A stretch of DNA of 64,000 nucleotides from Fibrobacterales bacterium (GTDB taxonomy: Bacteria; Fibrobacterota; Fibrobacteria; Fibrobacterales; JAOPTW01): positions 15,053 to 79,052 of the forward strand of contig JAOPTW010000037.1 in the NCBI GenBank assembly GCA_051532035.1, given 5' to 3'. The notes below the pieces were generated by a model. The model saw nothing but the letters and a program-made list of their open reading frames with translations. It was not told the DNA's origin and did no database searches. Position numbers and translations under genes: made by a program. Every line of letters begins with the position of its first letter. Positions within the stretch are counted from its first letter, which is position 1. Shown here one piece after another: positions 661 through 42,800 of this stretch.

Positions 661-769
661 GAACAGTCTCAGGAGTATATCCTCAATAACATTAAGAAAC
701 AGGTGTTTAATACATGAATTCTCCGTAAAGAACTCATTGTCACTGATAGAGCCTCTTTACCACCCATGT
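661..769 (+). repeat. 109-bp direct repeat, copy 1 (copy 2 at 8943-9051)
   Basis: Hand alignment gives 105/109 identity, from GAACAGTCTCAGGAGTA to TTTACCACCCATGT. Confidence 0.95.
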
Positions 770-15847: not shown

Positions 15848-16128
15848 TGTATCCTCTTTTTGTATCCTGTAGGTTGGTTGTTATGAAAATATATCCTCAC
15901 TAAGCCTAAAAAACAAGTAAAAGTGTATCCTTGATCGTTGTTTTTTAGAATACATACAAGTTTGAAATGAAATATGATGTAATTTGTTGGAAATGGGGGA
16001 CCATTGAACAATACTAATGGCCAAGTTTATAAAAAATGCACGATACCATGTTTGTTAGAGTACAGATAGTGCTTTATACGCTATATTTAAGCTATATTGT
16101 TGTAGGTGATTGCCATAAGAAGGATACA

Positions 16129-16968: not shown

Positions 16969-16970
16969 TC

Positions 16971-17591
16971 ATGAGAAGTATTCAATTGTTGTTGGTGAGT
17001 GTCTTGGTATGTATGAGTTGTTCCGATACCACTGTTGCAGGTGGAGGTACAGATGTCGACAACGCTATTGTATTGGGCAAGGTAATGGCGGACAGCCTTG
17101 GCGTTGCACAAGCCCAAGTGTATATTATGACGGATGATTATAATCCTATGACGGGCAACCAAAATATTCCTGCCCAAGCAACAGAAACTGATGCTCAGGG
17201 TAATTTTGAAATTGGAAATCTATTGCCGGGCACCTATTCTATGGAAGTACATCATCCCGATGGAAGCCAAATGGATTGGTCACATAGTTTTGAATTAAAA
17301 TCAACTGACTCCCTAGATATTACAATGGAAGTAAAAAAGAAACACTGGATTATTCTCCCTATTCCTGATTCATTAAAAATGATTGATTTTTATCTGTATG
17401 TAGCGGGGAGCAATATGTTGGTTGAGCATAACGCTGCAACATATACGAAAGACCATATCGTTCTTGAGAATATCCCCGAAAAAGAGATTCCCTTTATATT
17501 AAAAGGGTTGTTATTCGATGCATCGGTTGCTCCAGTCGTTTTTCATGGTGCGATACCTGCTTTCGATCAGGATACTCTTGATTTGAGGTAG
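16971..17591 (+). CDS. Lipoprotein with carboxypeptidase-regulatory-like (Cna-B-like) domain
   Basis: Lipobox CMS-C, AGGGTDVDN, TDAQGNF...L.PGTY; starts 2 nt after the TIGR02147-like gene. Confidence 0.75.
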   Translation: MRSIQLLLVSVLVCMSCSDTTVAGGGTDVDNAIVLGKVMADSLGVAQAQVYIMTDDYNPMTGNQNIPAQATETDAQGNFEIGNLLPGTYSMEVHHPDGSQMDWSHSFELKSTDSLDITMEVKKKHWIILPIPDSLKMIDFYLYVAGSNMLVEHNAATYTKDHIVLENIPEKEIPFILKGLLFDASVAPVVFHGAIPAFDQDTLDLR

Positions 17592-19705: not shown

Positions 19706-19742
19706 AAAAAAGCCCTTAACCACCTTGGTTAAGGACTTTTTT
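19706..19742 (+). terminator. Intrinsic terminator
   Basis: AAAAAAGCCCTTAACCA-CCT-TGGTTAAGGACTTTTTT, 55 nt after the stop at 19650. Confidence 0.75.
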
Positions 19743-19946
19743 ACTCGAAGGCTTTGATAGGGTGAGGCAAAATATTGGGGATGAAGATTTGCTCTGCAAA
19801 AATTCGCCGAAGGCAATTGTTCTACTCATCAATGTCCTTGATCTGTAGCTTACAAATGGTAAGCGTATAAATGTGTGTGTTGGATTAAAAAGCATTGCTA
19901 TGGTTTTGACATCTGCTCATTTGAGAGAAGATCAGAGCCTATCATA

Positions 19947-19974
19947 ATCTCGACCTCAGAGTGCTCTATACCCA
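19947..19974 (+). repeat. 28-bp direct repeat, left copy (right copy 32432-32459)
   Basis: ATCTCGACCTCAGAGTGCTCTATACCCA versus ATCTCGACCTCAGAGTGCTCGATACCCA, 27/28 identical. Confidence 0.9.
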
Positions 19975-20325: not shown

Positions 20326-21600
20326 ATGCCAAGTCAACATGATAACGTTGAAAGACACATTAATAGTATATTAGAAAGTAGTTCAATCGAAGAGATCAAG
20401 GCACAGCTTGCGCCTAAAATGGATAATATTCCGCAACCGGTTGAACAGGGGTCTACTCCTGAAAATATCCTGAACCGATTGTCTCGACTTGCTCTTTCAG
20501 AAGAGTCTCAGAATTGTATAGCAGACTCATTTGCACTAGATCAGTCTGACCAATATTTTGGTAATATTGAAAATTTTATTGGATTAAGCAGAACTCCCCT
20601 CGGAATTGCTGGTCCACTGCGGATAAACGGAATGTATGCCAATGGTGACTACACTATTCCATTAGCAACAACCGAAGCTGCTCTTGTGGCATCATACCAC
20701 AGAGGGAGCACTGTTATTTCTATGGCGGGTGGGTGTACCGCCTTATTACTCAACGAGGGTATTAGTCGATCACCGGGTTTTATATTTAACGATTCGACAG
20801 ATGCATGTATTTTCATAGTATGGGTTCAAAAGCAGCTTGAGACATTTAAAAAAATTGTAGCGAACACAACGAACTATGGTGTTCTCACTGATATGAGAAT
20901 GACTATCGAGAGTAATCATGTCTATTTAGTTTTTGAATATACAACGGGAGATGCCTCGGGACAAAATATGGTGACTATTGCTACTCAAGAGATTTGTGAT
21001 TTCATTATTGCTCAGTCACCGATTACCCCCAATAAATCATATATAGAGGCAAATCTTTCTGGAGATAAAAAGGCAAGCCACCTTTCATTTCAAAATGTAC
21101 GTGGTAAAAAAGTTAATAGTGAGGTGGTTATTCCCTATGATCTCGTTAAAAAGAAGTTGAATACGACACCAAAAGATATTGTTGAGTACTGGAAGATTTC
21201 ATCCATAGGTGGAGTGTTAAGTGGAACCATTGGTTTTCAGGGGCATTATGCAAATGGGCTCACAGCACTCTATATGGCTTGTGGACAAGATGTAGCCTGT
21301 GTTTCAGAATCGGCAGTTGGTATAACCAAAATGGAAATTACAGAAAATAACGATCTATATGCCTCAGTAAATCTACCGAATATAATTATTGGTACAGTGG
21401 GAGGGGGGACGCAACTCCCTTCTCAAAAGGCATGTCTTGATATTATGGGGCTTGCGGGGGAAGGTAAGGCCCGTGCATTAGCAGAGGTTTGTGCAAGTCT
21501 CTGTTTGGCGGGCGAGATATCTATAATGAGTGCTATTACCTCAGGGGATTTTACACGAGCGCACAAAGTACTGGCGCGTAATAGAAACAGGAATAAATAA
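20326..21600 (+). CDS. Hydroxymethylglutaryl-CoA reductase, class I-like
   Basis: ENFIG, PLATTEAALVAS, TGDASGQNM, NLSGDKK, GQDVA, GTVGGGT and a C-terminal His (RAH). Confidence 0.9.
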   Translation: MPSQHDNVERHINSILESSSIEEIKAQLAPKMDNIPQPVEQGSTPENILNRLSRLALSEESQNCIADSFALDQSDQYFGNIENFIGLSRTPLGIAGPLRINGMYANGDYTIPLATTEAALVASYHRGSTVISMAGGCTALLLNEGISRSPGFIFNDSTDACIFIVWVQKQLETFKKIVANTTNYGVLTDMRMTIESNHVYLVFEYTTGDASGQNMVTIATQEICDFIIAQSPITPNKSYIEANLSGDKKASHLSFQNVRGKKVNSEVVIPYDLVKKKLNTTPKDIVEYWKISSIGGVLSGTIGFQGHYANGLTALYMACGQDVACVSESAVGITKMEITENNDLYASVNLPNIIIGTVGGGTQLPSQKACLDIMGLAGEGKARALAEVCASLCLAGEISIMSAITSGDFTRAHKVLARNRNRNK

Positions 21601-22550
21601 TGGCTGATTACTCTCTAAAAGATAATGACAAAAACTTTTTAATTCGTTTCTGGATATACCAAAAAGAGCGGTTTCCTTTTTTTCAACATGGCATTTTAAT
21701 TACTGCATTTGCCTTTTCGGCAGCAGCATATTCTCGTCTTTGTCGCGACTCTATCAGTTTTATACCTCTATCTACATTTATAGTTGGTGCGTTTACTGCA
21801 ATTGGTTTTTTCTTTTTACTCCGACTCTTTGATGAATTTAAAGATTATGAGGATGACGCTCGGTACCGCCCATATAGAGCAGTTCCTCGTGGATTAATAT
21901 CCTTCAAAGAATTAAAACTTATGGTTTTAGTAGTTATAGGGCTTATTGTCATTGTAAATGGGATTATATTACCCAAAATGCTTCCTGCCATTGCTATCTG
22001 TTTTGTATATCTTGGATTAATGACCAAAGAGTTTTTTGTCCCGGAGTGGCTTAAAAAACACCCGATGATATATATGGCATCGCACATGATGATCATGCCA
22101 CTGATTGACTTATATACTACAGGACTTGATTGGATGAATGAAGGTATTTCTCCACCGCATGGTGTTGAAGTATTTTTGATAGTTTCATTCTTTAATGGAA
22201 TAGTTATAGAAGTAGGCAGAAAAATTAGAGCACCTCAGGATGAAGAGGAGGGGGTTGAAACCTATTCTGCACTGTATGGTACGACACGTGCGGCACTCAT
22301 ATGGATAGCTGCTTTGGTTGTAACAGCTCTATGTGCAGTAATAGCCTGTTCACTAAACTCATACAGTTCTATCAGCATTATTATTTTATCAATTGTTTTT
22401 CCCCTAACGCTGTTACCAGCAATACTCTATTTGAAAAATGTATCAACAAAATCAAGTAAAAGAATTGAGCTTGCAGCGGGAGTCTGGACTATCGGCATGT
22501 ATTTAATTGTAGGCGCAACACCGCTTATTGTAAATCAGGTACTCTCATAA
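21600..22550 (+). CDS. UbiA-family prenyltransferase-like membrane protein
   Basis: Multi-TM protein; Asp-rich RLFDEFKDYEDD followed by RPYRAVPRGLIS; second motif RKIRAPQDEEEGVETYS; TAATG overlap with the upstream gene. Confidence 0.75.
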   Translation: MADYSLKDNDKNFLIRFWIYQKERFPFFQHGILITAFAFSAAAYSRLCRDSISFIPLSTFIVGAFTAIGFFFLLRLFDEFKDYEDDARYRPYRAVPRGLISFKELKLMVLVVIGLIVIVNGIILPKMLPAIAICFVYLGLMTKEFFVPEWLKKHPMIYMASHMMIMPLIDLYTTGLDWMNEGISPPHGVEVFLIVSFFNGIVIEVGRKIRAPQDEEEGVETYSALYGTTRAALIWIAALVVTALCAVIACSLNSYSSISIIILSIVFPLTLLPAILYLKNVSTKSSKRIELAAGVWTIGMYLIVGATPLIVNQVLS

Positions 22551-22551
22551 T

Positions 22552-25155
22552 ATGGATGTTATAACAACTATTACCGATGCTCATCAGCAAAATATTATTG
22601 GCACTAAAGCATATAATCTTCTGACACTCAAAAAAGAAGGGTACCCGGTACCACCACTTTTTGCGGTTACGACGAATGCTTTTAATCATTATGTCCCCAG
22701 AGAATGGTTTAATGATCTTGACGAAGTTGTTGGGCGTATCAATGGAGTACCATTATCACCAGAGTTTTGTAGTGAACTCAATGCAATGGTTGATGAAAAA
22801 AAGTATTACGCAGTACGATCATCAGCGATAGGCGAAGACTCAGAGGAACTATCGTTTGCGGGGCAACTCGACTCCTTTTTATATGTTAAGGGTAATGATA
22901 TTACACGACATGTCAAAAAAGTGTGGGCATCTGCATTTTCTGATCGTGTGGTTGAGTATCGCCGAATAAACGATATCGCCAATGATACCGTTAATGTTGG
23001 TGTGTGTGTCCAAGAGATGGTCGCTGCAGACGTTTCTGGAGTTGCTTTTGGCATTGATCCCGTGTCGGGTAATAGAAACGCAGTAGTGATCTCTTCGGTG
23101 TATGGGTTGGGAGAGGGCTTAGTTTCGGGGGAACTCGATGCAGATACCTATACCTATTGTATGAAACAAAAGAGCTGTATCTCTAAAGATATTGTAGAGA
23201 AAAATCAGGCGATAGTTATGGACGCCGAAAGTCAACAGGGTGTGACACGAGTCTCAGTTGAAAGTGATAGACAGTCTCTATCTAGTTTAACAGATGGCCA
23301 GATTAAGCAACTTGCCGAAACAACTCGTTCTATATCTGAGTATTACCAATCACCACAAGACATTGAGTGGGCTATTGCAAATGATACGCTCTATATTCTA
23401 CAAAGTCGCCCAATAACCAATATGTCCAATATCCCCGATAAAACGCAGCAGAAAAGAGTCTGGGACAACAGTAACATTACGGAGAGCTATGCAGGGGTTA
23501 CTACTCCTTTAACCTTCTCGTTTGTTCAAAAAGTATACACAAATGTATATGAACAATTTTGTTTGATTATGGGAGTTGAGCAAGAAGTGGTTGATGCCAA
23601 CACTCCCATATTTAGTATGCTCGGATTAATGAAAGGGCGTATTTATTATAATCTACTCAATTGGTATAAAGTACTCTCGTTACTACCCGGCTACGAGATT
23701 AATGCGTCGTTTATGGAACAGATGATGGGGGTAACTGAAAAAATTGAATTTAACCCCAATCTAACGTATAGCAAAAAGAACAAGTACCGTAGAGTAGTAG
23801 GCTTGTGTTATTGCACTATAAAAAACCTTGTATCACTTTCTAAAAGTGTAACGGCATTTCATGTGTTACTCGATGCGACTCTTAAGCCTTACACTAATGC
23901 TGATTATAGTAATAGCACAGTAGAAGAACTTATTGAGAACTATACTGACCTTGAAAAAAAGCTTTTAAAAAAATGGCAGGCACCGCTAGTTAATGACTTT
24001 TTCGCTATGATTTTTAGTGGTATATTAAAAAAACTTGTGGTTAAATGGGGGATTGACTCAAATGGATCATTGCAAAATGATCTGCTGTGTGGCGAAGGGG
24101 GGATTGTTTCGACCGAGCCAATCCGAAGTATTTTTGCCATCGTAGAACAAATAAAGAGTACTCCTCGTTTAAAAGAACAGATTCTTTCACTTCCAGCAAA
24201 AAATGTACTGGAGTCAATCAGTGAATATCCTGAAGTACACAGTGCAATAATAGAACATTGTAATGCATTTGGTGATCGCTGTGTGAATGAACTGAAGCTC
24301 GAAACTATTTCGGCTAAGCATGATCGGTCAAAAGTAGTGCAGCTTATTCAATCATATTTGAAGGTTAAAGTACTCTCTATTCAACCAGGACATGAAAAAC
24401 GAATTCGTGAGAGTGCTGAAAAAATAGTGCGTACCCATATGCGTTCTAAATTGGTTAAGAAAAGGATTTTTGGATGGGTACTCAATAAGACTCGGTTGCT
24501 CATTAAAAACCGAGAAAACTTACGCTTTGAGCGAACGAAACTATTTGCAGTGGTCCGAGAAATGTTTTTGGCAATAGGCCAAAAGTATGCAGCAGAACGT
24601 ACTTTGGAGTTTGATAGAGATATTTTCTATTTAAAAATTGATGAAATATTTTCTTTTGCCGATGGAACAGCGGTAGATTGCAATTTTAAAAAAATTGTTG
24701 CTGAGCGTAAAAAAGAGTTTGAAGAGTATGAAGGCGAAAAGGTTCCCGATCGATTTGAAACTTATGGTCCGGTAAATCAAACAAACTCTTTTGAAAGTAC
24801 TACCGAAACGGTTGTTGTAGATAGCTCAAGTTTGTGCGGCACCGGATGCAGTCCTGGGAAAATCAAGGGGACCGTTGTTGTGGTTACCGACCCAAACAAC
24901 TCATCAAATTTGGATGGCAATATTATGGTTGCCGAAAAAACTGATCCGGGATGGGCGCCTCTATTCCCTTTAGCAAAAGGGATATTAGTTGAGCGAGGAA
25001 GTCTGTTATCACACTCAGCAATAGTTGCTCGTGAAATGGGTATTCCTGCTGTAGTTGGTATTAAAAATATTATGACAATACTAAAAACCGGAGATGAAAT
25101 TGAGTTTGACGGCACAACAGGAGTCGTTAATATTCTTAAAAGGAGTGAGGGATAG
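22552..25155 (+). CDS. PEP-synthase / rifampin-phosphotransferase-like dikinase (ATP-grasp, substrate domain, C-terminal His-swivel domain)
   Basis: GTKAYNL, AVRSSA.GEDS...SFAGQ, DIEWA, LQSRPIT; C-terminal TDPGWAPLF and GSLLSHSAIVAREMGIPAVVG; no PEP-binding barrel after the His domain. Confidence 0.85.
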   Translation: MDVITTITDAHQQNIIGTKAYNLLTLKKEGYPVPPLFAVTTNAFNHYVPREWFNDLDEVVGRINGVPLSPEFCSELNAMVDEKKYYAVRSSAIGEDSEELSFAGQLDSFLYVKGNDITRHVKKVWASAFSDRVVEYRRINDIANDTVNVGVCVQEMVAADVSGVAFGIDPVSGNRNAVVISSVYGLGEGLVSGELDADTYTYCMKQKSCISKDIVEKNQAIVMDAESQQGVTRVSVESDRQSLSSLTDGQIKQLAETTRSISEYYQSPQDIEWAIANDTLYILQSRPITNMSNIPDKTQQKRVWDNSNITESYAGVTTPLTFSFVQKVYTNVYEQFCLIMGVEQEVVDANTPIFSMLGLMKGRIYYNLLNWYKVLSLLPGYEINASFMEQMMGVTEKIEFNPNLTYSKKNKYRRVVGLCYCTIKNLVSLSKSVTAFHVLLDATLKPYTNADYSNSTVEELIENYTDLEKKLLKKWQAPLVNDFFAMIFSGILKKLVVKWGIDSNGSLQNDLLCGEGGIVSTEPIRSIFAIVEQIKSTPRLKEQILSLPAKNVLESISEYPEVHSAIIEHCNAFGDRCVNELKLETISAKHDRSKVVQLIQSYLKVKVLSIQPGHEKRIRESAEKIVRTHMRSKLVKKRIFGWVLNKTRLLIKNRENLRFERTKLFAVVREMFLAIGQKYAAERTLEFDRDIFYLKIDEIFSFADGTAVDCNFKKIVAERKKEFEEYEGEKVPDRFETYGPVNQTNSFESTTETVVVDSSSLCGTGCSPGKIKGTVVVVTDPNNSSNLDGNIMVAEKTDPGWAPLFPLAKGILVERGSLLSHSAIVAREMGIPAVVGIKNIMTILKTGDEIEFDGTTGVVNILKRSEG

Positions 25156-25156
25156 T

Positions 25157-26266
25157 ATGGAAGAGTCTATAGAAAACAGGGCTGCTTTTGATATTATTCG
25201 GTATGCTAACTGCTGGGAAGATACAGAAGTGTTACTCAAAGGGATGAATATAGTTCCGGGAGATATTTGTTATTCAATAGCAGCAGCAGGGGATAACTCA
25301 CTCGCTATGCTCACAAAAGATCCGGCAAAAGTAATTGCCTTTGATTTGAGTATCGCTCAAATTGCACTTGTTGAATTAAAAAAAATAGGATTTAAAAAGT
25401 TAGAATACCCTGAACTGCTCACGTTACTGGGAGTTACCGGTAGACCTGAAGAGCGTATTGCTCTTTATAATGGTATACAATCAAATTTGTCACAGGAATC
25501 AAAAATATTTTGGGAATCACGCCTCCAAGATATTGCCCAAGGGGTTATTTATACAGGGAAGTTCGAAAAGTATTTTAAATTGTTTCGTGAAAAATTCCTA
25601 CCCTTTGTTCATACTAAAAAAACCATACAAAAACTTCTAGAAAAAAAATCATTTGATGAACAAGAGAATTTTTATGCAAAAAAATGGAACACGTGGCGTT
25701 GGCGATTAATGTTTAAAGTGTTTTTTTCAAAGTGGCTCATGGGTAAAGCCGGTAGAGATAAAGAGTTTTTTAAATATGTTGTTGATGATGTACCCTCAAA
25801 TATACACCGAAGAGTAGCCCATGCACTCACAAAAATATCATGTCATCAAAACAGTTATTTGAATTTTATTCTTACGGGTAGTTATAATGGTGTTCTTCCG
25901 TATTATTTAAGAAAAGAGTATTTTACTAAAATCAAAACCAATATTGATAATTTAGAAATACATCAAGCCACATCAAGTGAGGTATTTAAAAAGGTTTCTG
26001 GCACATTTGATGCGATTAATCTTTCTGATATTTTTGAATATATGAATCCCGAACTTTTTAAAAGAGTAGCAGATGAAATTCTTGATAATGCGAACAGTGG
26101 TGCTCGTTTGGTTTACTGGAATATGATGGTTCCCCGTAAGGTGTCTGAGTTATATCCAGAACGGGTACAATGTGATGAGATGTTATCTGACTCTTTATTG
26201 AGTGTTGACAATGCATTTTTCTACCAAAAGCTGTATGTTGATACCGTAAAAAGAGTTTGCGTATGA
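25157..26266 (+). CDS. DUF3419 / BtaA-like SAM-dependent 3-amino-3-carboxypropyl transferase
   Basis: Y..CWED, SIAAAGDN, D.S.AQ..L.ELK, GKFE, LSDIFEYM; start set at ATG 25157, 1 nt after the upstream stop. Confidence 0.8.
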   Translation: MEESIENRAAFDIIRYANCWEDTEVLLKGMNIVPGDICYSIAAAGDNSLAMLTKDPAKVIAFDLSIAQIALVELKKIGFKKLEYPELLTLLGVTGRPEERIALYNGIQSNLSQESKIFWESRLQDIAQGVIYTGKFEKYFKLFREKFLPFVHTKKTIQKLLEKKSFDEQENFYAKKWNTWRWRLMFKVFFSKWLMGKAGRDKEFFKYVVDDVPSNIHRRVAHALTKISCHQNSYLNFILTGSYNGVLPYYLRKEYFTKIKTNIDNLEIHQATSSEVFKKVSGTFDAINLSDIFEYMNPELFKRVADEILDNANSGARLVYWNMMVPRKVSELYPERVQCDEMLSDSLLSVDNAFFYQKLYVDTVKRVCV

Positions 26267-27612
26267 TTACTGAAAATGAAATAGTAAACATGATTATAAT
26301 CTCAGTAATATATTTAGTAACTTTTTCCGTTGCAGAACTCTGGCGATTGTTTTTTAAACCGAAAGTTGAATATACCAGAAAATTTGTACACTTAAGCTCA
26401 GGGCTCGTATGCCTCTCGTTTTCTTATGTTTTTGAATCTCATATAAGCATCGCCATTTTGGCTTCAATGTTTGCATTGATTATGATCGTTTCAAAAAAGT
26501 TTCATTTCCTTAAATCAGTTCATGGAATTAATCGAAAAACTCATGGAGGAATATATTATCCGGTTGCAGTGTACGGTACCTTTTTTATATCTACTCTTAT
26601 ACATCAGCCAGATTTTTATTTTATCTCTATTCTAGTGCTCTCTATATCCGATACATTTGCCGCATTTATTGGTGGTGCGTATGGAGTTAAGAAATATAAA
26701 GTTGAAGTAGATTCAAAAAGCGTTGAAGGCTCCTTCGTGTTTTTTATGTTAACCTTTATAATAATCCTTGTCTGTTTGTTGCTACTCACTGGTTTGAATA
26801 GACCTGTTTGTATTCTCTTAGCATTTTACGTTGGGATACTGATAACAATATTTGAGTCACTCTCTACAACGGGGGCCGACAATTTTTTTATTCCAATGGG
26901 TACCATAATGATATTGTATAATAATGCTCATAAGTCATGGGATATTATAGCAGTACAGATTGGAATAATGACCGCTGTATTGTTTGCGGTCTATTTTGTT
27001 ATGCGCGGTCAAAAAAAGATTGGTTCAACAGGAATTCTCGGAGCAGGGATCATATGTTATGGAAGTTGGGCACTGGTTAATGAGTCATGGGCAATGGTTA
27101 TCTTTATCGCAATTTGTATCTTCTCAATGAGTAAATTCTCAAAAATTGAATCAAGGTATCGCTACAGAGTTAAAACATCATTTTTCCTTTTCCTTATACC
27201 ACTTGTGTGGCTTGTTATTGCCCGTTATAGCACTTTTCACCAAAAATTTATGTTTGTACCTTATGTTATCTGTCTTGGCGGAATCCTCAGCTGTTTGTGG
27301 GGAAGACAAATAATTAAATATAAAGATATGCTTTCAAATTACTCTCCATTATACTCACTGAATAGTATCAAAAGAAGTGTCGTACTTACGGTTGTTTTTT
27401 TACCTGCCTACTTTATTACTGATGCATCCATAAATATTGTGTTAAGTATTCCGAGTCTTATTGGGGGAATCTTTTTGGTTGATTATTTAAGTAGAAAAGA
27501 GGTATATGGTAATGTAACACAAGCGGTTAAATCTCGGGTTATCATGTTGTATTCAGTTGCTGTTTCGGCTATAGTATTTGGATTAAACTACTACATCTAC
27601 ACAGGGTATTAA
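26263..27612 (+). CDS. Phytol/dolichol kinase-like (CTP_transf family) membrane protein with an extra C-terminal TM region
   Basis: RKFVHLSSG, SDTFAAFIG, KSVEGS, ADNFFIP; ATGA overlap at 26263. Confidence 0.75.
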   Translation: MITENEIVNMIIISVIYLVTFSVAELWRLFFKPKVEYTRKFVHLSSGLVCLSFSYVFESHISIAILASMFALIMIVSKKFHFLKSVHGINRKTHGGIYYPVAVYGTFFISTLIHQPDFYFISILVLSISDTFAAFIGGAYGVKKYKVEVDSKSVEGSFVFFMLTFIIILVCLLLLTGLNRPVCILLAFYVGILITIFESLSTTGADNFFIPMGTIMILYNNAHKSWDIIAVQIGIMTAVLFAVYFVMRGQKKIGSTGILGAGIICYGSWALVNESWAMVIFIAICIFSMSKFSKIESRYRYRVKTSFFLFLIPLVWLVIARYSTFHQKFMFVPYVICLGGILSCLWGRQIIKYKDMLSNYSPLYSLNSIKRSVVLTVVFLPAYFITDASINIVLSIPSLIGGIFLVDYLSRKEVYGNVTQAVKSRVIMLYSVAVSAIVFGLNYYIYTGY

Positions 27613-27614
27613 GA

Positions 27615-28616
27615 ATGGTAAAAGTTCTGAACCAATTATCAAAAATTGAGTTTGAAGATTATTTAGATACTCTTTCAACTGCAATATATAAGGATGACCC
27701 ATGTTTTGTAAAATCACCGGTCTCTATTACCTCTGCTCAGCATAAGTATTTTGTAGTTATTCAAAACGAGGTGGTGGTTGCATGCGCTATTGCCTTTATT
27801 GATAAGAAATTACAGTATAATGGGGTTGAGACTGGAGGGATAGGGTATTTTGAATCACTTGATGATATTCAATGTGTAAAATACCTCTTTACTCACATTG
27901 AGCAGTATTTTAAAGCTCACAGAGTTACAGAGTGTATTGGTCCAATAAATGGGTCGACATGGAATAAACACCGGCTCAATGCTCCTGATAGCGAACCTAC
28001 CTTTTTTCTTGATAACTATCACGCCCCTTGGTATTTAAATCTTTGGAAAGAGAGTGGATATCGTTCCATTTCAGAATATGAATCCACCTCTGTTAAACGA
28101 AACAATTTTTCATTTACTCGATTGAGTCGATTTTCAAACTATTATTCCAAGAAGAATATTACCTTCAGACCACTCTCGATTGATGAGTTTGAGCGGGATA
28201 TTGGATCAATATACTCTCTGTGTATTAAAAGCTTTGCTGATAATTTTTTATTTACTCCTATTGCCGATACTGATTTTCAAAAGATGTATTATCAGGCAAA
28301 AACATTTATTGACCCTCAGTGGGTGATACTTGCTGAAAATGGTGAAGGGGAGTTGCTTGCAGTGATATTTGCTGTCAAAGACGTGTACTGTACGACTTCG
28401 AAACGATTGATTATAAAATCTTTGGCTATTGATCCCGAAAAATCTCCTCGAGGGCTTGGTGCCTATCTTGTAGAATTATTGCATCAACAGGCGCATAATA
28501 CAGGGTATGATGAGATAATTCATGCACTCATGCATAAAAATAACATTTCTACAAACATTGTATCAAAGTCGAGTAGTAGTTTTAGAACGTATCATTTAAT
28601 GGGTAAAGAGTTATGA
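27615..28616 (+). CDS. Tandem GNAT-fold acyltransferase (YghO-like)
   Basis: GYFES, GPINGSTW..HRL, P.YL.LW...GY, C-terminal IKSLAIDP...GLG and ALMH..N. Confidence 0.7.
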   Translation: MVKVLNQLSKIEFEDYLDTLSTAIYKDDPCFVKSPVSITSAQHKYFVVIQNEVVVACAIAFIDKKLQYNGVETGGIGYFESLDDIQCVKYLFTHIEQYFKAHRVTECIGPINGSTWNKHRLNAPDSEPTFFLDNYHAPWYLNLWKESGYRSISEYESTSVKRNNFSFTRLSRFSNYYSKKNITFRPLSIDEFERDIGSIYSLCIKSFADNFLFTPIADTDFQKMYYQAKTFIDPQWVILAENGEGELLAVIFAVKDVYCTTSKRLIIKSLAIDPEKSPRGLGAYLVELLHQQAHNTGYDEIIHALMHKNNISTNIVSKSSSSFRTYHLMGKEL

Positions 28617-30145
28617 TTTCACCCATAATAGAGCTTCTTATAGAAAATGCTCAAAGGTACCCCGATAAAGTTGCAATTGTTGAGGGTAATAAATCAGTAA
28701 CCTATAACGAACTTCTGATCCTTGTGAAACGTAAAAGTGCCGTATTAAAAAAAAGTAATATTAATTGCGGAGATACCATATTAGTATATGTGCCAATGAG
28801 TATTGCATTGTATGTGAACTTACTTGGGATTTGGTATAGAGGAGCTGTTGCGGTATTTGTTGACGCCTGGACATCCAAAAATAGACTCGATTATGTTGCT
28901 GAATTTACTCAGAGTAAAGCATTTATAGGGATTCCAAAAGCATTTTTATTCACTGTTTTTTCAAAAAAGGTCCGGGCAATACCGATTAAAATTATGGAAC
29001 GCTCTTTTTTAATGAGTCAGAACTATGATTTAGATAGAGTACCAGAATCGGTTGAGGGAAATAGAACGGCTTTGGTTACTTTTACCACGGGTAGTACCGG
29101 AGTGCCTAAGGGAGCAAACCGTACACATGATTTTTTAATGGCACAACACAATACTCTCAAAGAGCATCTTAAACTCAGTAGTGACGATGTTGATTTAACA
29201 ACATTACCCATATTTTTATTAAATAATTTAGGTATGGGGATTACAAGTGTCATTGCACCAATCAAGCATGCAAAGCCCGAGGCGCTGAGCCCTAAAAAGG
29301 TGATTCACGCAATTCGAAAATACTCTGTGACCACAACAGCCGGGTCTCCAATTGTTTATGAAACCCTTGCTCGGTATATTCAACAAAAGAGTATTTTTAA
29401 TCTCACCCTAAAAAAGATATTTATTGGAGGAGCACCTGTTTTTCCACGTTTAGCCAATACACTTAGGGATAGTTTTCCTTCTGCTCGAATTGAAGTAGTA
29501 TACGGTTCAACAGAAGTAGAACCTATAAGTAGTTGTAGTATTGATTCCGTTATACAGCATTCGGATAACTTATTGGAAAAAGGACTCTGTGTTGGAACTG
29601 TTGATAGCCATATACAACTTGCCGTTGTATCACCAGAGTCAATTTGTAGTACCATGAATGAAAACACCTTTACCACTGCATGTGTAAGCGAAGCTGCCGT
29701 TGGTGAAATATGTGTTTCTGGTAATCATGTACTTTCCTCATATTACAACAACCCAGTAGCAGAAAAAGAGAATAAGATTAATGTGTCGGGAACAATCTGG
29801 CACCGTACTGGCGATTGTGGATACTTATTACATAACACTTTATTTTTAATGGGAAGGTTACAACAAATAATTGTGGTGGATGGGAGTGAATACTTTACTT
29901 TTCCTATGGAACAAGTATTGGCAGAAATTCCAGGAATTAAGCGTGCTACTATTTTACAGAATCAAGGTGATTTACATACAGTAATTGAACCTGTTCCACA
30001 AGCTGATAGATCATTAATAACCCAACAGGTAAAGGCTATAGAAGTGTTGAATACATCTAAAATACATTATAGAGTCATACCCAAAGACCCACGACATAAT
30101 TCAAAAACTGATTACGATTCACTTAAAAAACATTTAGGATTATAA
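28613..30145 (+). CDS. AMP-binding (ANL superfamily) ligase, OleC-like
   Basis: TFTTGSTGVPKG, YGSTEVEP, HRTGD; C-terminal DPRHNSK resembles the OleC D.RHN.K motif. Confidence 0.85.
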   Translation: MISPIIELLIENAQRYPDKVAIVEGNKSVTYNELLILVKRKSAVLKKSNINCGDTILVYVPMSIALYVNLLGIWYRGAVAVFVDAWTSKNRLDYVAEFTQSKAFIGIPKAFLFTVFSKKVRAIPIKIMERSFLMSQNYDLDRVPESVEGNRTALVTFTTGSTGVPKGANRTHDFLMAQHNTLKEHLKLSSDDVDLTTLPIFLLNNLGMGITSVIAPIKHAKPEALSPKKVIHAIRKYSVTTTAGSPIVYETLARYIQQKSIFNLTLKKIFIGGAPVFPRLANTLRDSFPSARIEVVYGSTEVEPISSCSIDSVIQHSDNLLEKGLCVGTVDSHIQLAVVSPESICSTMNENTFTTACVSEAAVGEICVSGNHVLSSYYNNPVAEKENKINVSGTIWHRTGDCGYLLHNTLFLMGRLQQIIVVDGSEYFTFPMEQVLAEIPGIKRATILQNQGDLHTVIEPVPQADRSLITQQVKAIEVLNTSKIHYRVIPKDPRHNSKTDYDSLKKHLGL

Positions 30146-32355
30146 TGATTTCATTTAATACACTCTATAAATTACGCTTTATATTACTTGGCGCTATTTT
30201 AATCGTTCTTGCTGTTGCGTCTCTTTTTTTACAAAACCTTAAAATTGATAATAGCTTTGATGTTTGGTTTATGGATAATGATCCTGCACTCATTAAATAC
30301 AACGAGTTTAAAAAAGAATTCGGTAATGATGAGGCTCTGATAACAGTAATTCAGTTTAAAAATAACCCTATTAATGATTCAACATTTAAAAAATTAGTGG
30401 CGGTAACGAATAGTATTCAAAATGTTGATGGAATATTTAGAATTCAAACACTGAGTTCATACTACGCCGGAGTATCACAACTGCAAAAATTTAATGCAGA
30501 TACTCACAATTTTGAAAAGAATGAACCTATCGAAGATGAGTTACGTAAGCTCATAACAGACTCTGAGTTAAGCAAAAGGTTCTATACTCCTGAGAGTAAT
30601 AGTTTGATACTCTATTCATGGATCGATACCGATGAAAATATTGATAAAAAACGTTCAATTATCATCAATTCCGTAGATAGTATATGTAAAACGTATTTTT
30701 TAGGAGCAGAGGTGCATCATGCGGGTATCGGAGTAGTACTCAACGCTCTTAATGAAGAGTCTATGAAACAGAGTGCATTGTTTATGCCACTATCATATTT
30801 ATTAATTATCATATTTGTATTCTATTTTACTCGAAGTTTTTTGTGGACTGGTATTGCACTACTATCAGTGATACTGACTACAGTGTTTTTATTCGAATGT
30901 ATGGGGTATTTGCACAAACCTCTCACTATGATAACGGTAGCATTGCCGCCGCTCATATTAATTATGAGTGTTGCAAACATAATGCATTTTTCAAGGTATG
31001 TTGCCCTTCATTTTGATGAAAATAACTTTGAACTCACCCTTGATGCTTTTAAGAAAATACTCAAACCTTGTTTGTTTAATGTTTTTACTACTGCCGCTGG
31101 CTTTCTTTCACTTGCTAGTGCCAATATGGGAATTACGAGAGACTATGGGATGTTTGCTGCGATTGCGGTGGTTATTGCTTTTATAAACAGCTTTGTGGGT
31201 GCTTTGCTTGTACTAAAAAAGGTGAGTGTAAATAAAATTGTGGTCCCCAAATTAGCAGGCGCCGAAATGCTTGTGTCATTTTCAATTAGAAATAGTAAAA
31301 AAGTGATTGCTGTTTTTGCCATTTTGCTCGTGATATCAATTATTGGTATTAGTACAATAGTTGTTGATACTTATAGTATAGACTTTTTAAATAAACAGCA
31401 CCCTGTACGAGTATCAAGCGAAGCTATTGAGACCCATTCGGGAAACTATCTACCGATAGAGTTTAATATTCATTTAAATAACAAAGTATTGTATAGAGAC
31501 CCTGCGTTATATGCAGCCTTTAAAGCCATGCATGTCGAAGTAAAAGCAGAACCCTTTGTTGACGCACTTCTTTCACCATTAACAATCTATGCAGAGGTGC
31601 AGAGAATATTTACAGCCTCTGATGATAAATCAGCAGCCGCTTCTATATTGTTAGCAGCAACAACTATGGACAAACAGCTTGATGCAATGGGACTCATAAA
31701 TGGAGATCGTTCATTATTACGGTTTAGTTGCATGGTGCCAATGGCCAGTGCTCGAAGATTAACTGAGTACGGCAATATTATAGAAGGCATTGCGCAACGT
31801 CACTTTACTCAGTTTGGTACTGTATCTAAAACGGGTTACTTACCTTTGTATGGTCGCCTTATAGAAAATATTATTCACGACCAAGTAACGAGCATACTCC
31901 TTGCTTTGGGTGTAATATCTTTTTTAATTTCAATTCTACTTCGTTCCTTCAAGATGCTTATTATAGCTTGTATTGTTAATACTGTTCCCATAATTATGAT
32001 ACTGGGCATTATGGGGCATATTGGGATCTTCCTTGATATAGCTACAGTAACAATTGCCCCGGCCATGTTGGGTATTATTGTCGATGATACCGTACATATT
32101 TTGTTTCATTTAAAAAAGTACCTGTCAGATGGGGAAGAATTTACTCAGGCAATGAACACTATTGCTAAAAGTACCGGGTCAACATTAATAGCGACAACTA
32201 TTATTCTTATTGCAGGATTTGGTATTATTGGATTTGCAGATATCAAGTCAATGTCATACACAGGAATGTTAACAGCAATAACTGCTGGTTTTGCTCTTGT
32301 TACAGACCTTATGTTGCTGCCAGCTATTGGGTATACAATATATAAGAGAAAGTAG
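30145..32355 (+). CDS. MMPL/RND-family exporter
   Basis: Two repeats of TM, periplasmic loop and five TMs; FTTAAGF, GIIVDDTVH; TAATG overlap. Confidence 0.88.
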   Translation: MISFNTLYKLRFILLGAILIVLAVASLFLQNLKIDNSFDVWFMDNDPALIKYNEFKKEFGNDEALITVIQFKNNPINDSTFKKLVAVTNSIQNVDGIFRIQTLSSYYAGVSQLQKFNADTHNFEKNEPIEDELRKLITDSELSKRFYTPESNSLILYSWIDTDENIDKKRSIIINSVDSICKTYFLGAEVHHAGIGVVLNALNEESMKQSALFMPLSYLLIIIFVFYFTRSFLWTGIALLSVILTTVFLFECMGYLHKPLTMITVALPPLILIMSVANIMHFSRYVALHFDENNFELTLDAFKKILKPCLFNVFTTAAGFLSLASANMGITRDYGMFAAIAVVIAFINSFVGALLVLKKVSVNKIVVPKLAGAEMLVSFSIRNSKKVIAVFAILLVISIIGISTIVVDTYSIDFLNKQHPVRVSSEAIETHSGNYLPIEFNIHLNNKVLYRDPALYAAFKAMHVEVKAEPFVDALLSPLTIYAEVQRIFTASDDKSAAASILLAATTMDKQLDAMGLINGDRSLLRFSCMVPMASARRLTEYGNIIEGIAQRHFTQFGTVSKTGYLPLYGRLIENIIHDQVTSILLALGVISFLISILLRSFKMLIIACIVNTVPIIMILGIMGHIGIFLDIATVTIAPAMLGIIVDDTVHILFHLKKYLSDGEEFTQAMNTIAKSTGSTLIATTIILIAGFGIIGFADIKSMSYTGMLTAITAGFALVTDLMLLPAIGYTIYKRK

Positions 32356-32431
32356 TTGTTCAATTATAGGGGTTCTTTATCACCCATGTGGCACATACCG
32401 TGCTTATCATACACAATCACCGCATAACAGT

Positions 32432-32459
32432 ATCTCGACCTCAGAGTGCTCGATACCCA
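32432..32459 (+). repeat. 28-bp direct repeat, right copy
   Basis: 27/28 identical to 19947-19974; 76 nt after the MMPL stop. Confidence 0.9.
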
Positions 32460-32788: not shown

Positions 32789-33604
32789 ATGAATAGAGAA
32801 TTTGTTGATCTATTACTGTTTTTGGCTATGGCAGGCGTTGTCGTAGCATTTGCTATAAATGCAAAAGCGGCATATAAACGTGCATTTTCAGGTGTGATTG
32901 CACTAACAATCATACTAACTGGAGTTATTGTCTATTATGTGCGTGAATTTAAGCCGACTTTCTCAGAGCATCAGGTTGCTACAACTGAATCATTAGATGT
33001 GGAGGATGAAATTGTTGTCGATGAGCTCGAGGACGTTACCGTTGATAGTGCAGAAAATCAGGAAGCCAATGTAATCACTGAGCCTGAAGAAGCTGAAGGG
33101 AGTACAACTCCAGAAGAAAACATTATTGAGGTAGTCGAGGCTGAATCAGACGAAGAGGTAGCGGTTGAACCAGAGTTTGAAGATAGTAATAGTGATGTTG
33201 ATGAACCCGGTCCTGAACAACAGCTTAAAGCATTTAAGAAAAAAGCCCTTGCTCTCAGACGTGAAATTACTGATGTACACCGAAAAATGCAGAAGTTAGA
33301 TTTACAGGACGTGTATGACATGGAAGATCGTGAGTATAAGAGTTTTGTTAAAGATGCCAACTGGCTCAAAATTCTCGCAGTTAGATATTATAAGAGTGTA
33401 AAAAAATTAGACGTTCCATCAGATGCGAAGAATATTTTTATACAACTCAAAAAGTATGGCTCTCATGTACGATACGCGGGGATCAACCTCTACTCTTTCA
33501 GTAAGGCTGGGGATGAAGATAAAGAGGCTGAACGTGAAGCTAAATTCATAAAATATCGATCGAAAGCATGGAAGTATTACAAGAGGCTTAAAAAACTGCT
33601 GTAA
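32789..33604 (+). CDS. Hypothetical membrane-anchored protein with acidic linker and basic helical C-terminus
   Basis: Two N-terminal TMs, E/D-rich low-complexity stalk, K-rich C-terminal domain; AGGAAG RBS. Confidence 0.75.
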   Translation: MNREFVDLLLFLAMAGVVVAFAINAKAAYKRAFSGVIALTIILTGVIVYYVREFKPTFSEHQVATTESLDVEDEIVVDELEDVTVDSAENQEANVITEPEEAEGSTTPEENIIEVVEAESDEEVAVEPEFEDSNSDVDEPGPEQQLKAFKKKALALRREITDVHRKMQKLDLQDVYDMEDREYKSFVKDANWLKILAVRYYKSVKKLDVPSDAKNIFIQLKKYGSHVRYAGINLYSFSKAGDEDKEAEREAKFIKYRSKAWKYYKRLKKLL

Positions 33605-33626
33605 GGTGTGGTAAATTCAGGCGTAT

Positions 33627-34496
33627 ATGAATTCTACAAATACAACTATTCCCAGAACTTATTTCAGGAAAGAGAGTGCATCACATTTTGAATTGGAAGT
33701 TGTATCCCTTGCTCAGCTAGAGCATAAAATAATAGAGAACTATTCGCCTCGGTTCGAACGAATGGAATTTTATTTATGTATGCATATTACCAAGGGGAGT
33801 GGAGTCCATATTGTTGATTTTACCGAGTTGAAGTATGGACCGGGCTCGACAATTATGGTGTCAAAGTATCAAATTCAAAAATGGGTTACGAATAAACAAG
33901 TAGATGGTTGGGTTGTCATGTTTACTGATGACCTCCTCAATGCGTTACCAGAAGATACCGCGTTACTTTTTGATTTGCACGTAGCCTGTACTCATACCCC
34001 AGTGGTTCTAAATAATAAGGATTTGAATAGCGCTATAACCTCTCTGCAAAACGAGTATGTACAAAAAGATGATGCTGTTCAAAAAACTATTCTTGTATCT
34101 CAATTGCGTGTTATGGTATGCCAGATAATCCGCCAATTACATGAAAAAGCGGGTTCAATATCTATTGCCAATATTGAACTCTACTATAAGTATCGTAGGT
34201 TGTTAGAGGCTGAATTTATTACTTCACGAACGGCTCAGTACTATGCAGAAAAATTGTGTGTGTCATCTAAAACTCTCTCACGAACATTAAAGAGAGTTAC
34301 GGGTGAGACAATAAAGGAGAGCATAGATAATAGAATTGTTCTTGAGGCAAAAAGGCTGTTGTTAACAGGCAATAGAACAACCAAAGATGTCTGTTATGCG
34401 CTAGATTTTGATGAGCCTACTAATTTTGTGAAGTATTTTAAAAGAATCGTTGGTCAAACACCGCAAGGATATCAGCAAGAACAGCACGGTTCTTAA
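33627..34496 (+). CDS. AraC-family transcriptional regulator
   Basis: Cupin-like N-terminus; YYAEKLCVS..TL, LEAKRLL, L.FDEPTNF.KYFKR.VGQTP. Confidence 0.92.
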   Translation: MNSTNTTIPRTYFRKESASHFELEVVSLAQLEHKIIENYSPRFERMEFYLCMHITKGSGVHIVDFTELKYGPGSTIMVSKYQIQKWVTNKQVDGWVVMFTDDLLNALPEDTALLFDLHVACTHTPVVLNNKDLNSAITSLQNEYVQKDDAVQKTILVSQLRVMVCQIIRQLHEKAGSISIANIELYYKYRRLLEAEFITSRTAQYYAEKLCVSSKTLSRTLKRVTGETIKESIDNRIVLEAKRLLLTGNRTTKDVCYALDFDEPTNFVKYFKRIVGQTPQGYQQEQHGS

Positions 34497-34506
34497 AAAT
34501 GCTAAA

Positions 34507-34548
34507 TGTCTCAAATCTACCATCCTCTGTCTTGATCTGACCTGCAGA
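34507..34548 (+). promoter_or_regulatory. Candidate AraC-type tandem half-sites with 21-bp period
   Basis: TGTCT...ACC at 34507 and at 34528, upstream of TGGTATCTTT and the SnoaL-like gene. Confidence 0.45.
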
Positions 34549-34607
34549 CTTAATCTCAATACTGGTATCTTTATAATAGATACATAATTAAAATATTGGA
34601 GATTACA

Positions 34608-35465
34608 ATGAAAACTATCGCAACAGCCACGGCAGCACTGTTCATTACTTTGGGGTGTAGTAGTACCGACAAATCTGTTTCAGAAACAGGTCAGATGAGT
34701 AACAAAGAAAAAGTTGTACGGTTACTTAAAAGTATTGAAACAGGTGAGCATGAACCAATCTCGTACATCAATGCCGAAAAGTATACCCAGCATAATCTTA
34801 TGGTTAAGGATGGGCTTGTGGGTTTTGGTGAGCTCATGGCTCAGTTACCTCAGAACAGTGCTAAAGTGAATACTGTTCGATCATTTCAAGATGGTGATTA
34901 TGTGTTTACCCATACTGAGTATGAATTCTTTGGACCCAAAGCAGGATTTGATGTGTTTCGGTTTGAGGATGGACTCATTGTTGAACATTGGGATAATCTT
35001 GCAGAATTGGCGCAACAACGTAATCCATCGGGAAGAACACAGCTTGATGGGCCTGTTGAAATTGCCGATCTCGAAAAAACCGATGCCAATAAATTGTTGG
35101 TACAACGACTCATTACTGAGGTCCTTATAGAGGGTAAGTTTGAGGCAATGGCTGGCTACTTTGATGGCGATAATTATTTACAACACAATACTCATATTGG
35201 GGATGGACTATCGGGATTGTCCACTGCAATTCAAATAATGGCAAAACAGGGCATAGCAATGGAATATAGGTATCTACACAAGGTGGTAGGTGAAGGAAAC
35301 TTTGTTTTGGCTATCAGTGAAGGCATTTTCGCTGAGAAACCTACTTCATTCTATGATCTGTTCAGAATTGAAAATGGGAAAATAGCCGAACATTGGGATG
35401 TTATTGAGAAGATACTTCCCAAAGAGGATCATCAAAACACTAACGGCAAATTTAATTTTAAGTAG
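34608..35465 (+). CDS. Tandem SnoaL/NTF2-like domain lipoprotein
   Basis: Lipobox TLG-C; two repeats of YxQHN...DG and D.FR.E.G.I.EHWD; GGAGA RBS before ATG 34608. Confidence 0.88.
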   Translation: MKTIATATAALFITLGCSSTDKSVSETGQMSNKEKVVRLLKSIETGEHEPISYINAEKYTQHNLMVKDGLVGFGELMAQLPQNSAKVNTVRSFQDGDYVFTHTEYEFFGPKAGFDVFRFEDGLIVEHWDNLAELAQQRNPSGRTQLDGPVEIADLEKTDANKLLVQRLITEVLIEGKFEAMAGYFDGDNYLQHNTHIGDGLSGLSTAIQIMAKQGIAMEYRYLHKVVGEGNFVLAISEGIFAEKPTSFYDLFRIENGKIAEHWDVIEKILPKEDHQNTNGKFNFK

Positions 35466-35758: not shown

Positions 35759-35819
35759 ATTTAATACTATTTCGGCAAGATAGCGATTGTTGCTATTGAG
35801 TGTAGATGGATTAATAGAA

Positions 35820-37301: not shown

Positions 37302-37303
37302 AT

Positions 37304-38705: not shown

Positions 38706-38709
38706 ACAA

Positions 38710-42786: not shown

Positions 42787-42800
42787 TGGAAGGGGGAATA

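Follow-up and report, generated by a model that had tools for sequence, protein, structure and literature searches.

An eight-gene operon of a Fibrobacterales genome carries a widespread gene cassette with a putative role in membrane-lipid synthesis

The stretch of DNA analysed here (hereafter the window) comprises 64,000 nucleotides of a Fibrobacterales genome (contig JAOPTW010000037.1, positions 15,053 to 79,052). Eight open reading frames (ORFs) occupy positions 20326-32355 of the window, all on the forward strand. They are numbered genes 1 to 8 and resemble, in this order, a 3-hydroxy-3-methylglutaryl-CoA (HMG-CoA) reductase (HMGR), a UbiA-type prenyltransferase, a dikinase, a DUF3419/BtaA protein, a polytopic membrane protein (gene 5), a GNAT acyltransferase, an adenylate-forming ligase and an MMPL exporter. 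We consider it probable, at roughly 0.6, that the eight genes form a single operon with a widespread and uncharacterised membrane-lipid cassette at its core. The cassette probably builds and exports an amino-acid-headed lipid. All of its parts belong to known enzyme families, and their combination matches no characterised pathway. The source genome of the window consists of 5.25 Mb in 130 contigs and is 91.75% complete; the public run containing the window DNA is filed as a marine metagenome.

The gene set recurs in other genomes. A scan of 185,579 species genomes with a gene 5 profile gave 82 confirmed matches, the best 80 of which corresponded to 77 distinct loci, all from uncultured genomes. 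These loci were sorted by tblastn with the eight window proteins. Genes 2-7 (UbiA, dikinase, DUF3419, gene 5, GNAT and ligase) occurred in the same order and on the same strand in 29 of the 77 loci. All six were present in another order in two loci (cyclically permuted in L005, and with genes 6 and 7 inverted in L072), 17 loci held a partial cassette, mostly cut by contig ends, and the remaining 29 held gene 5 alone. With one gene order shared by 29 of 77 loci, each fetched independently, the clustering of these six genes far exceeds what chance would give. Four of the partial loci looked truly reduced, with genes 4-5 in L004 and L071, genes 1-4-5 in L067, and a major facilitator superfamily (MFS) gene followed by genes 5-6-7 in L069. 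The conserved unit is genes 2-5 together with the GNAT/ligase pair, and HMGR and MMPL are accessory. The initial annotation of the window, made from its sequence alone, had proposed that these genes form an uncharacterised lipid pathway and that their co-occurrence elsewhere should be checked; since the set recurs elsewhere and no characterised match was found in the literature searched, that proposal is not refuted on either count. No paper describing the gene set was found in the full-text literature searched, although most subscription papers lie outside its coverage and this is not proof of absence.

The loci carried about ten phylum labels, namely Fibrobacterota, Bacteroidota, Pseudomonadota, Bacillota, Melainabacteria, Elusimicrobiota, Xenobia, Gemmatimonadota, Eisenbacteria and Acetothermia, a count that is approximate because the labels are titles of metagenome-assembled genomes (MAGs), some of them clearly mis-binned. 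The nearest cassette relatives of the window were labelled Fibrobacterota and Chitinispirillum. Among 201 Fibrobacterota genomes, which are related and not independent, 11 had both DUF3419 and gene 5, four had DUF3419 only, none had gene 5 only and 186 had neither. The two genes were adjacent in every genome that had both (11/11).

The lone gene 5 loci were mostly from Rifleibacteriota, and each of the five such genomes tested had one DUF3419 gene elsewhere. In all three of these DUF3419 loci that were read, the gene lay in a dikinase-MMPL-DUF3419 run, with a UbiA match ahead of it in two. In L086, the order by Pfam was UbiA-dikinase-MMPL-DUF3419, followed by a LolA-like gene. This second layout independently ties UbiA, the dikinase, DUF3419 and a resistance-nodulation-division (RND) exporter together, and its LolA-like partner points to lipid delivery to the outer membrane. 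In a quick tree of gene 5 (64 rows, with rows of <340 aa and identical sequences excluded), the lone forms were nested inside the cassette forms. The neighbours of lone Rifleibacteriota gene 5 copies (a 5'-nucleotidase, an M20 peptidase and a GAF protein) gave no consistent lead.

Some loci showed additional genes around the cassette. In L063 (positions 111-3247) and the matching part of L065, labelled Xenobia or Burkholderiales, a second AMP-ligase, a class III aminotransferase and a PNPOx-like gene preceded HMGR, and ca. 5 kb with a short-chain dehydrogenase/reductase (SDR) gene and a beta-propeller gene lay between gene 5 and the GNAT gene. These extra genes (aminotransferase, PNPOx-like, SDR and beta-propeller) likewise provided no consistent lead. 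In Melainabacteria loci, a further lipid gene, convergent to the cassette, encoded a protein of 1156 aa in which MFS, PlsC-type acyltransferase and AMP-binding domains are fused (L059:13524-16994, reverse strand), resembling LplT/Aas-type lysophospholipid re-acylation; it occupied the same position in many Gastranaerophilales loci.

Within the window, adjacent genes of the eight overlapped or sat ≤2 nt apart, with junctions that read, in order, TAATG, 1 nt, 1 nt, ATGA, 2 nt, ATGA and TAATG (Table 1). Genes 4 and 5 were taken to start at the ATG codons of 25157 and 26263; their longest ORFs start at 25094 and 26257. The ORF list and the reading of the junctions agreed exactly with the initial annotation, which had described an operon of eight co-directional, translationally coupled genes, and the eight form one compact unit. 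Its family assignments held: Pfam placed seven of the eight genes in the proposed families, gene 5 being the exception, whose kinase label has no profile behind it. The "OleC-like" label of gene 7 proved weak. Three of the eight products are polytopic membrane proteins, as judged by predicted transmembrane (TM)-like segments. Four RNA contigs matched the operon with zero mismatches, two on gene 3, one on gene 5 and one on gene 7. The DNA and the metatranscriptome that contains these short contigs derive from one sample. RNA contigs covered eight of 30 bins of the stretch, the uncovered parts being uninformative, and they hint weakly at transcription of the operon.

Table 1. Genes of the operon and putative control elements in the window
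Feature	Position	Strand	Basis or remark
Gene 1, soluble class I HMG-CoA reductase, 424 aa	20326..21600	+	PF00368
Gene 2, UbiA-superfamily membrane prenyltransferase, 316 aa	21600..22550	+	PF01040
Gene 3, dikinase with rifampin phosphotransferase architecture, 867 aa	22552..25155	+	PPDK_N + PEP-utilizers
Gene 4, DUF3419/BtaA family, putative SAM-dependent 3-amino-3-carboxypropyl transferase, 369 aa	25157..26266	+	PF11899
Gene 5, polytopic membrane protein, 449 aa	26263..27612	+	without Pfam/NCBIfam model
Gene 6, tandem-GNAT N-acyltransferase, 333 aa	27615..28616	+	Acetyltransf_1, Foldseek
Gene 7, adenylate-forming acyl-CoA/AMP ligase, 510 aa	28613..30145	+	PF00501
Gene 8, MMPL/HAE3-type RND exporter, 736 aa	30145..32355	+	PF03176
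Promoter-like site TTGAGA, 16 nt, CATAAT	19921..19948	+	consensus scan; ca. 380 nt upstream of gene 1
Conserved element of ca. 40 nt, copy 1	19932..19974	+	overlaps -10-like CATAAT of promoter-like site
Conserved element of ca. 40 nt, copy 2	32417..32459	+	beyond gene 8, before next + strand gene
SAM, S-adenosylmethionine

Gene 5 had no Pfam or NCBIfam match. It belongs to a large family, for which 1.84 billion cluster representatives yielded 1408 at E ≤ 1e-30. The protein consists of a conserved N-terminal domain of ca. 220 aa and a C-terminal half with about six TM helices, and was modelled by AlphaFold2 (AF2) with a pLDDT of 90.7. In a language-model atlas, the look-alikes of the N-terminal domain were a phosphatidate cytidylyltransferase fragment (0.93) and phytol kinase, diacylglycerol (DAG)/polyprenol kinase and DUF92 proteins (0.92 each). 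Across 34 sequences of the family, D130, A134, G137, E155, G156, E198, D206, N207 and P211 were invariant, and G141 and K152 were conserved in at least 90%. These residues fit the patterns D..A...G...G, K-S/T-x-E-G and E...DN..P, which we take to be the signature of dolichol and phytol kinases. The "phytol/dolichol-kinase-like" label of gene 5 rests on these look-alikes and presumed motifs, and its N-terminal domain resembles cytidine triphosphate (CTP)-dependent DAG/polyprenol kinases.

The same domain was found in two other contexts. Two metagenomic proteins of 472-473 aa (P0010 and P0011) have a CdsA domain (PF01148) as their N-terminal half, and the N-terminal ca. 220 residues of gene 5 were homologous to their C-terminal half (hhalign probability 99.75, E = 2.3e-27). 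In P0011, PF01148 covers residues 36-234 and the region homologous to gene 5 lies apart from it at 248-470. This fusion ties the gene 5 domain to cytidine diphosphate (CDP)-diacylglycerol metabolism. In a 654-aa protein (P0250), a single frame runs from a C-terminal DUF3419 portion (residues 3-148) into gene 5 (175-614), perhaps through genuine fusion and perhaps through an indel where stop and start overlap. A longer candidate, P0244 (802 aa, gene 5 with an extra C-terminal part), showed no relation to the GNAT family and had no Pfam match.

Gene 4 matched DUF3419 (PF11899) at E = 1.3e-66 over profile positions 5-382 of 385. It had >2048 homologues at E ≤ 1e-10, which bear the Joint Genome Institute (JGI) name SAM-diacylglycerol 3-amino-3-carboxypropyl transferase. 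None of 14 control genomes contained a DUF3419 match, which sets the family apart from housekeeping functions. The BtaA family moves an aminocarboxypropyl group from SAM onto the hydroxyl of a lipid. Passages of PMC6642084 link BtaA with DUF3419.

Gene 2 scored 42.4 bits against UbiA (PF01040; cut-off 34.2) and had seven TM-like segments. Its acidic motif and RP..VPRG were invariant in 18 of 18 homologues. The first Asp motif is a variant, D-E-x-x-D-x-x-x-D (canonical N-D-x-x-D-x-x-x-D), that aligned with the motif of chlorophyll synthase (ChlG); in the second Asp region, D170 was nearly invariant and D177 invariant, at a spacing that is not the canonical DxxxD. Against solved UbiA-family structures, a profile of the 18 homologues matched only chlorophyll synthase (E = 6e-4) and digeranylgeranylglyceryl phosphate (DGGGP) synthase (E = 1.4e-3), which were also among the NCBIfam matches of gene 2. 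Gene 2 thereby appears nearest to these two O-prenylating members of the superfamily.

Gene 3 has an ATP-grasp domain, a middle domain and a His swivel domain (Pfam PPDK_N and PEP-utilizers). Its best solved relatives were 5hv2 and 5fbs (E = 1.1e-72), and the swivel-domain His was aligned. The protein scored under all NCBIfam equivalog cut-offs: NF004881 (815 against 883), Rph (NF041857; 335 against 999), PigC (363 against 1300) and NF000283 (236 against 1700). Long ORFs in L072 and L080 that suggested a UbiA-dikinase fusion were dismissed, the two tblastn matches falling in different reading frames.

Gene 6 matched Acetyltransf_1 at residues 233-310 (24 bits against a cut-off of 20.7). A search of PDB sequences with its profile gave nothing significant. 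The predicted model (AF2, pLDDT 91.9) had as its top Foldseek match 7q3a, a tandem GNAT (E = 1.5e-13, TM-score 0.62), followed among others by MshD (1ozp and 2c27; TM-score 0.53-0.57), Eis and a clavulanate-pathway tandem GNAT. By its predicted model, gene 6 folds as a tandem GNAT. Its presence in the operon suggests that an amine is acylated rather than methylated; no methyltransferase domain was found by Pfam in any of the eight operon proteins, a search that did not extend to the rest of the genome.

Gene 7 matched AMP-binding (PF00501) at E = 5e-48. Its best NCBIfam model, PRK09274 ("fatty acid CoA ligase family"), gave 326 bits, short of the 478 required, and its closest solved relative was 4-coumarate-CoA ligase (E = 7.5e-31). 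The models of OleC beta-lactone synthetase gave 174 and 157 bits where 900 and 850 are required, so the OleC label is not borne out, and the protein is a generic ANL adenylate-forming ligase. Gene 8 scored 36.8 bits against MMPL (PF03176; cut-off 20.5), had twelve TM-like segments, and reached 97 bits against the HAE3 model TIGR00921 (cut-off 351.9).

Gene 1 matched HMG-CoA_red (PF00368) at E = 2.8e-108 (362.7 bits against a cut-off of 27) and stayed below the NCBIfam equivalog cut-off of TIGR00533 (310.9 against 441.8 bits). It is the sole HMGR copy in the genome, has no TM-like segment, and its closest solved relative was an archaeal HMGR (6hr7, E = 5e-80). Aligned with 6hr7, it keeps TTE, the R in ISRSP, DKK, RGK, H..N, GQD and the C-terminal His, residues that we take, from the human enzyme, to be catalytic or HMG-binding. 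Since all of these motifs are kept, gene 1 looks like a true HMG-CoA reductase and not a general acyl-CoA reductase, which argues for HMG-CoA as the likely substrate rather than an arbitrary acid. The initial annotation had noted that other mevalonate genes are lacking in the window, and this extended to the genome: neither HMG-CoA synthase (TIGR01835) nor mevalonate kinase (TIGR00549) was found in the 91.75% complete assembly, and DXS and IspH identified the methylerythritol phosphate (MEP) pathway as the isoprenoid route. Similarly, mevalonate kinase was above the cut-off in none of five other genomes with an HMGR-bearing cassette. HMGR was found in nine of the 77 gene 5 loci (absent from 68), directly before the UbiA gene in seven of the nine; it preceded DUF3419 in L067 and lay between the ligase and UbiA genes in L005, directly after the ligase. 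Four of five Fibrobacterota cassette genomes had HMGR, on the cassette contig in three (63 nt to ca. 3.7 kb from DUF3419) and on another contig in the fourth. Because HMGR was absent from six of eight further cassette genomes, it is an optional feeder and not a core step. Most likely, it makes mevalonate for a use outside isoprenoid-precursor synthesis.

From the gene content, conserved order, co-occurrence, folds and motifs that were observed, we infer as probable a pathway whose substrates, step order and product are as follows. Gene 5 would phosphorylate a lipid alcohol, and gene 3 would add a further phosphoryl group via its phospho-histidine. Gene 2 would then move the lipid chain from the diphosphate onto an acceptor oxygen, and gene 4 would add a 3-amino-3-carboxypropyl (homoserine-type) head group from SAM. 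The head-group amine would be N-acylated by gene 6 with an acyl-CoA supplied by gene 7, and gene 8 would carry the product out of the inner membrane. This differs from the linear scheme of the initial annotation, in which an acid was activated, reduced by HMGR and then phosphorylated; that scheme is not supported as it stood, given the presence of HMGR in nine and of MMPL in two of the 77 loci and the fit of the HMGR motifs to HMG-CoA. A more far-reaching version is possible, though doubtful: about ten phyla would make a new envelope lipid with an O-linked isoprenoid chain, an unusual kinase pair, an N-acylated homoserine head group and, in some lineages, a feed from HMGR. Its carriers would include gut Melainabacteria, Endomicrobia, Rifleibacteriota and marine Fibrobacterota, and CTP use by gene 5 is assumed in it. 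The product has a fair chance of being a new lipid class.

Several observations weigh against the reading of the cassette as a membrane-lipid pathway. Every substrate is proposed from sequence. For gene 5, none of eight family members matched any related Pfam model at E ≤ 5, and its predicted model had no PDB fold match (best E 0.17, TM-score 0.14-0.16; none at E ≤ 0.001). Because the MEP pathway already supplies prenyl diphosphates, activation by two kinases is not obviously needed. Two accessory genes are unevenly distributed: MMPL was present in just two of the 77 loci, both of Fibrobacterota, and of the six further cassette genomes that had no HMGR, four belong to Melainabacteria and one each to Endomicrobia and Bacillota. 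Gene 5 is unlinked in Rifleibacteriota, where neither GNAT nor ligase was found in the roughly 20 kb read. A same-genus genome that is 94% complete (G130) is without genes 4 and 5, and the operon is therefore dispensable. Near-identical Melainabacteria-type cassettes labelled Methanomethylophilaceae, Muribaculaceae and Clostridium are mis-binned MAGs. Finally, the RNA contigs are compatible with DNA carry-over and carry no strand or single-transcript information.

Other explanations assign different products to the same genes. Mevalonate itself could be the acyl block, with HMGR yielding mevalonate, gene 7 converting it to mevalonyl-CoA and gene 6 placing it on the BtaA-delivered amine; this would alter the roles of genes 1, 6 and 7 only, and the rest of the model would stand. 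The idea agrees with the retention in gene 1 of all mapped motifs with presumed catalytic or HMG-binding roles, with the lack of mevalonate kinase and HMG-CoA synthase in the genome, and with the position of HMGR directly after the ligase gene in L005. It also has a precedent in the fungal fusarinine siderophores, for which passages of PMC3709128 describe SidI as a mevalonyl-CoA ligase acting alongside SidH and the transacylase SidF, the last having a two-domain architecture according to a passage of PMC11751504. However, genes 6 and 7 were kept in the cassettes of HMGR-less genomes (six of eight tested), and HMGR lay at the far end from them in seven of the nine HMGR loci. Moreover, the operon encodes no hydratase, SidF was not among the 50 listed Foldseek matches of gene 6, and the source of HMG-CoA would be unexplained. 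We regard a mevalonyl group on the head group as unlikely.

It is more improbable still that the operon reflects ordinary remodelling of DAG of the betaine-lipid type, with gene 4 as a BtaA making diacylglyceryl-homoserine, gene 5 as a CTP-dependent kinase recycling DAG, and the other genes tailoring or unrelated. The accompaniment of DUF3419 by UbiA and the dikinase in two independent layouts is at odds with this view, since diacylglyceryltrimethylhomoserine (DGTS) synthesis needs neither, as are the lack of a btaB-type methyltransferase in the operon and the absence of DUF3419 from all 14 control genomes. It would nevertheless account for the full-length DUF3419 match of gene 4 and the JGI naming of its homologues as SAM-diacylglycerol transferases, for the tight pairing of genes 4 and 5, which stand alone together in L004 and L071, and for the fusion of the gene 5 N-terminal domain to CdsA in P0010 and P0011. 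The least probable product in our view is a diffusible secondary metabolite, namely a prenylated, phosphorylated or N-acylated signal or antibiotic exported by MMPL. Relatives of the dikinase do act on small molecules (PigC, RedH and Rph, lower-scoring in NCBIfam), the cassette is patchy across phyla and absent from a same-genus genome, as is typical of accessory metabolism, and genes for a SnoaL-like protein and an AraC-type regulator follow closely after the operon. Nevertheless, polytopic membrane proteins account for three of the eight products, the Rifleibacteriota exporter is paired with a LolA-like protein, and Pfam detected no polyketide synthase, nonribosomal peptide synthetase or terpene cyclase among the operon proteins.

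Upstream of the operon, a terminator-like hairpin (19714-19734) follows the preceding gene. The promoter-like site ahead of gene 1 scored 10 of 12 and was one of nine joint-best sites in the consensus scan. Because promoter-like sites were no commoner in the region than in shuffles (54 found versus 52), it is a candidate promoter only; nor did terminator-like sites exceed those of shuffles (12 versus 8.5). Rfam gave nothing at the gathering score in the window, and between 19600 and 20400 it gave only weak leader-like matches over the terminator of the upstream gene and no known riboswitch. The conserved element of ca. 40 nt occurs on both sides of the operon, its second copy lying 77 nt past the gene 8 stop and ca. 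357 nt ahead of the forward-strand gene at 32789. Across the 5.25 Mb genome, and allowing ≤2 mismatches, its 20-base core had full sites only at 19947 and 32432; one more core match, on another contig (C19), looks like chance. Two related copies were present in the same-genus genome (L084, G130:C58; about 250-295 and 3278-3348), where they precede two unrelated genes, one for an HD-domain protein and the other for a protein of 817 aa without recognised family. As a shared regulatory site, the element may serve as promoter or operator in this lineage. It was also considered as an island attachment site flanking the operon and rejected as such, the G130 copies preceding other genes. As these copies front other genes and synteny is broken, no empty site is demonstrable in G130.

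Downstream of the operon, positions 32789-35465 encode a 271-aa protein, an AraC-type regulator and a double SnoaL-like protein. The 271-aa protein, which starts at 32789, belongs to no Pfam family, has 82% DNA identity to G130 and shares its upstream element with the operon. A signalling block follows at 35787-45254, with a response regulator carrying an HD domain, CheR, CheB and two hybrid histidine kinases, one of which has CHASE3/PAS/GAF domains. Two giant ORFs lie further out in the window: one at 1183-8607 encodes a surface adhesin-like protein of 2474 aa with Big_9, cadherin-like, PKD and DUF285 repeats, and the other, at 53608-61182, a protein of 2524 aa. At 16036-17591, a gene for a DUF4423 protein is followed by one for a CarboxypepD_reg-like protein, and the same pair occurs in the same-genus genome (L084:8870-10981).

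If the cassette does build an amino-acid-headed membrane lipid, it would represent a new route to a polar lipid and would give a first function to a large membrane-protein family without a Pfam model. It would also be the first lipid-related role of a dikinase of the rifampin phosphotransferase type and a second use of BtaA-type chemistry besides betaine lipids, and would explain an orphan class I HMG-CoA reductase in bacteria with the MEP pathway. Its carriers are almost all uncultured and include gut Melainabacteria of animals. The cassette comprises six to eight genes in ca. 9-12 kb and could be expressed, so the model is directly testable.

The initial annotation had recognised no characterised pathway that combines these families, and none emerged from the literature searched. 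Individual segments of the operon nevertheless have counterparts in known systems. In common with fungal SidI/SidH/SidF, the operon combines an HMGR product, a CoA ligase and a GNAT-type transacylase; it differs in the lack of a hydratase, in an HMGR that is optional, and in that neither sequence nor the listed fold matches link gene 6 to SidF. Gene 8 shares the MMPL domain and weak HpnN and HAE3 matches with HpnN/MmpL-type RND lipid exporters, and a LolA-like partner accompanies the corresponding gene in Rifleibacteriota, whereas gene 8 falls below all curated cut-offs and accompanies the main layout in two of 77 loci. Gene 3 has the three-domain layout and the aligned catalytic His of rifampin phosphotransferase and the prodigiosin ligases PigC/RedH, but its middle, substrate-binding domain is divergent, its scores lie far under the equivalog cut-offs, and its genomic partners are different.

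Further parallels are found in lipid metabolism. Gene 4 is a full-length DUF3419 protein like that of the BtaA/BtaB pathway for DGTS in Rhodobacter sphaeroides and algae. In contrast to that pathway, the operon is without BtaB, and gene 4 is paired with gene 5 and usually with UbiA and the dikinase, which are lacking in DGTS synthesis. The archaeal ether-lipid steps catalysed by DGGGP synthase and CDP-archaeol synthase likewise bring together a UbiA O-prenyltransferase and a membrane protein of the CTP-transferase kind, and the DGGGP synthase structure 6m31 matched the gene 2 profile over nearly its full length (E = 1.4e-3). They are unlike the operon in that it encodes no geranylgeranylglyceryl phosphate (GGGP) synthase, gene 5 had no fold match to solved CTP-transferases, and the scores are weak. 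In phytol and prenol salvage, the phytol kinase VTE5 and the phytyl-phosphate kinase VTE6 feed UbiA enzymes such as chlorophyll synthase. The second kinase proposed here would differ in being a soluble dikinase of the phosphoenolpyruvate (PEP)-synthase type and not a DUF92 protein, gene 5 reaches no Pfam model, and the cassette carriers are non-photosynthetic. The proposed order of events is nonetheless the same, a lipid alcohol being phosphorylated twice before a UbiA enzyme transfers it; the look-alikes of gene 5 are named phytol kinase and DUF92, and ChlG is the nearest solved relative of gene 2.

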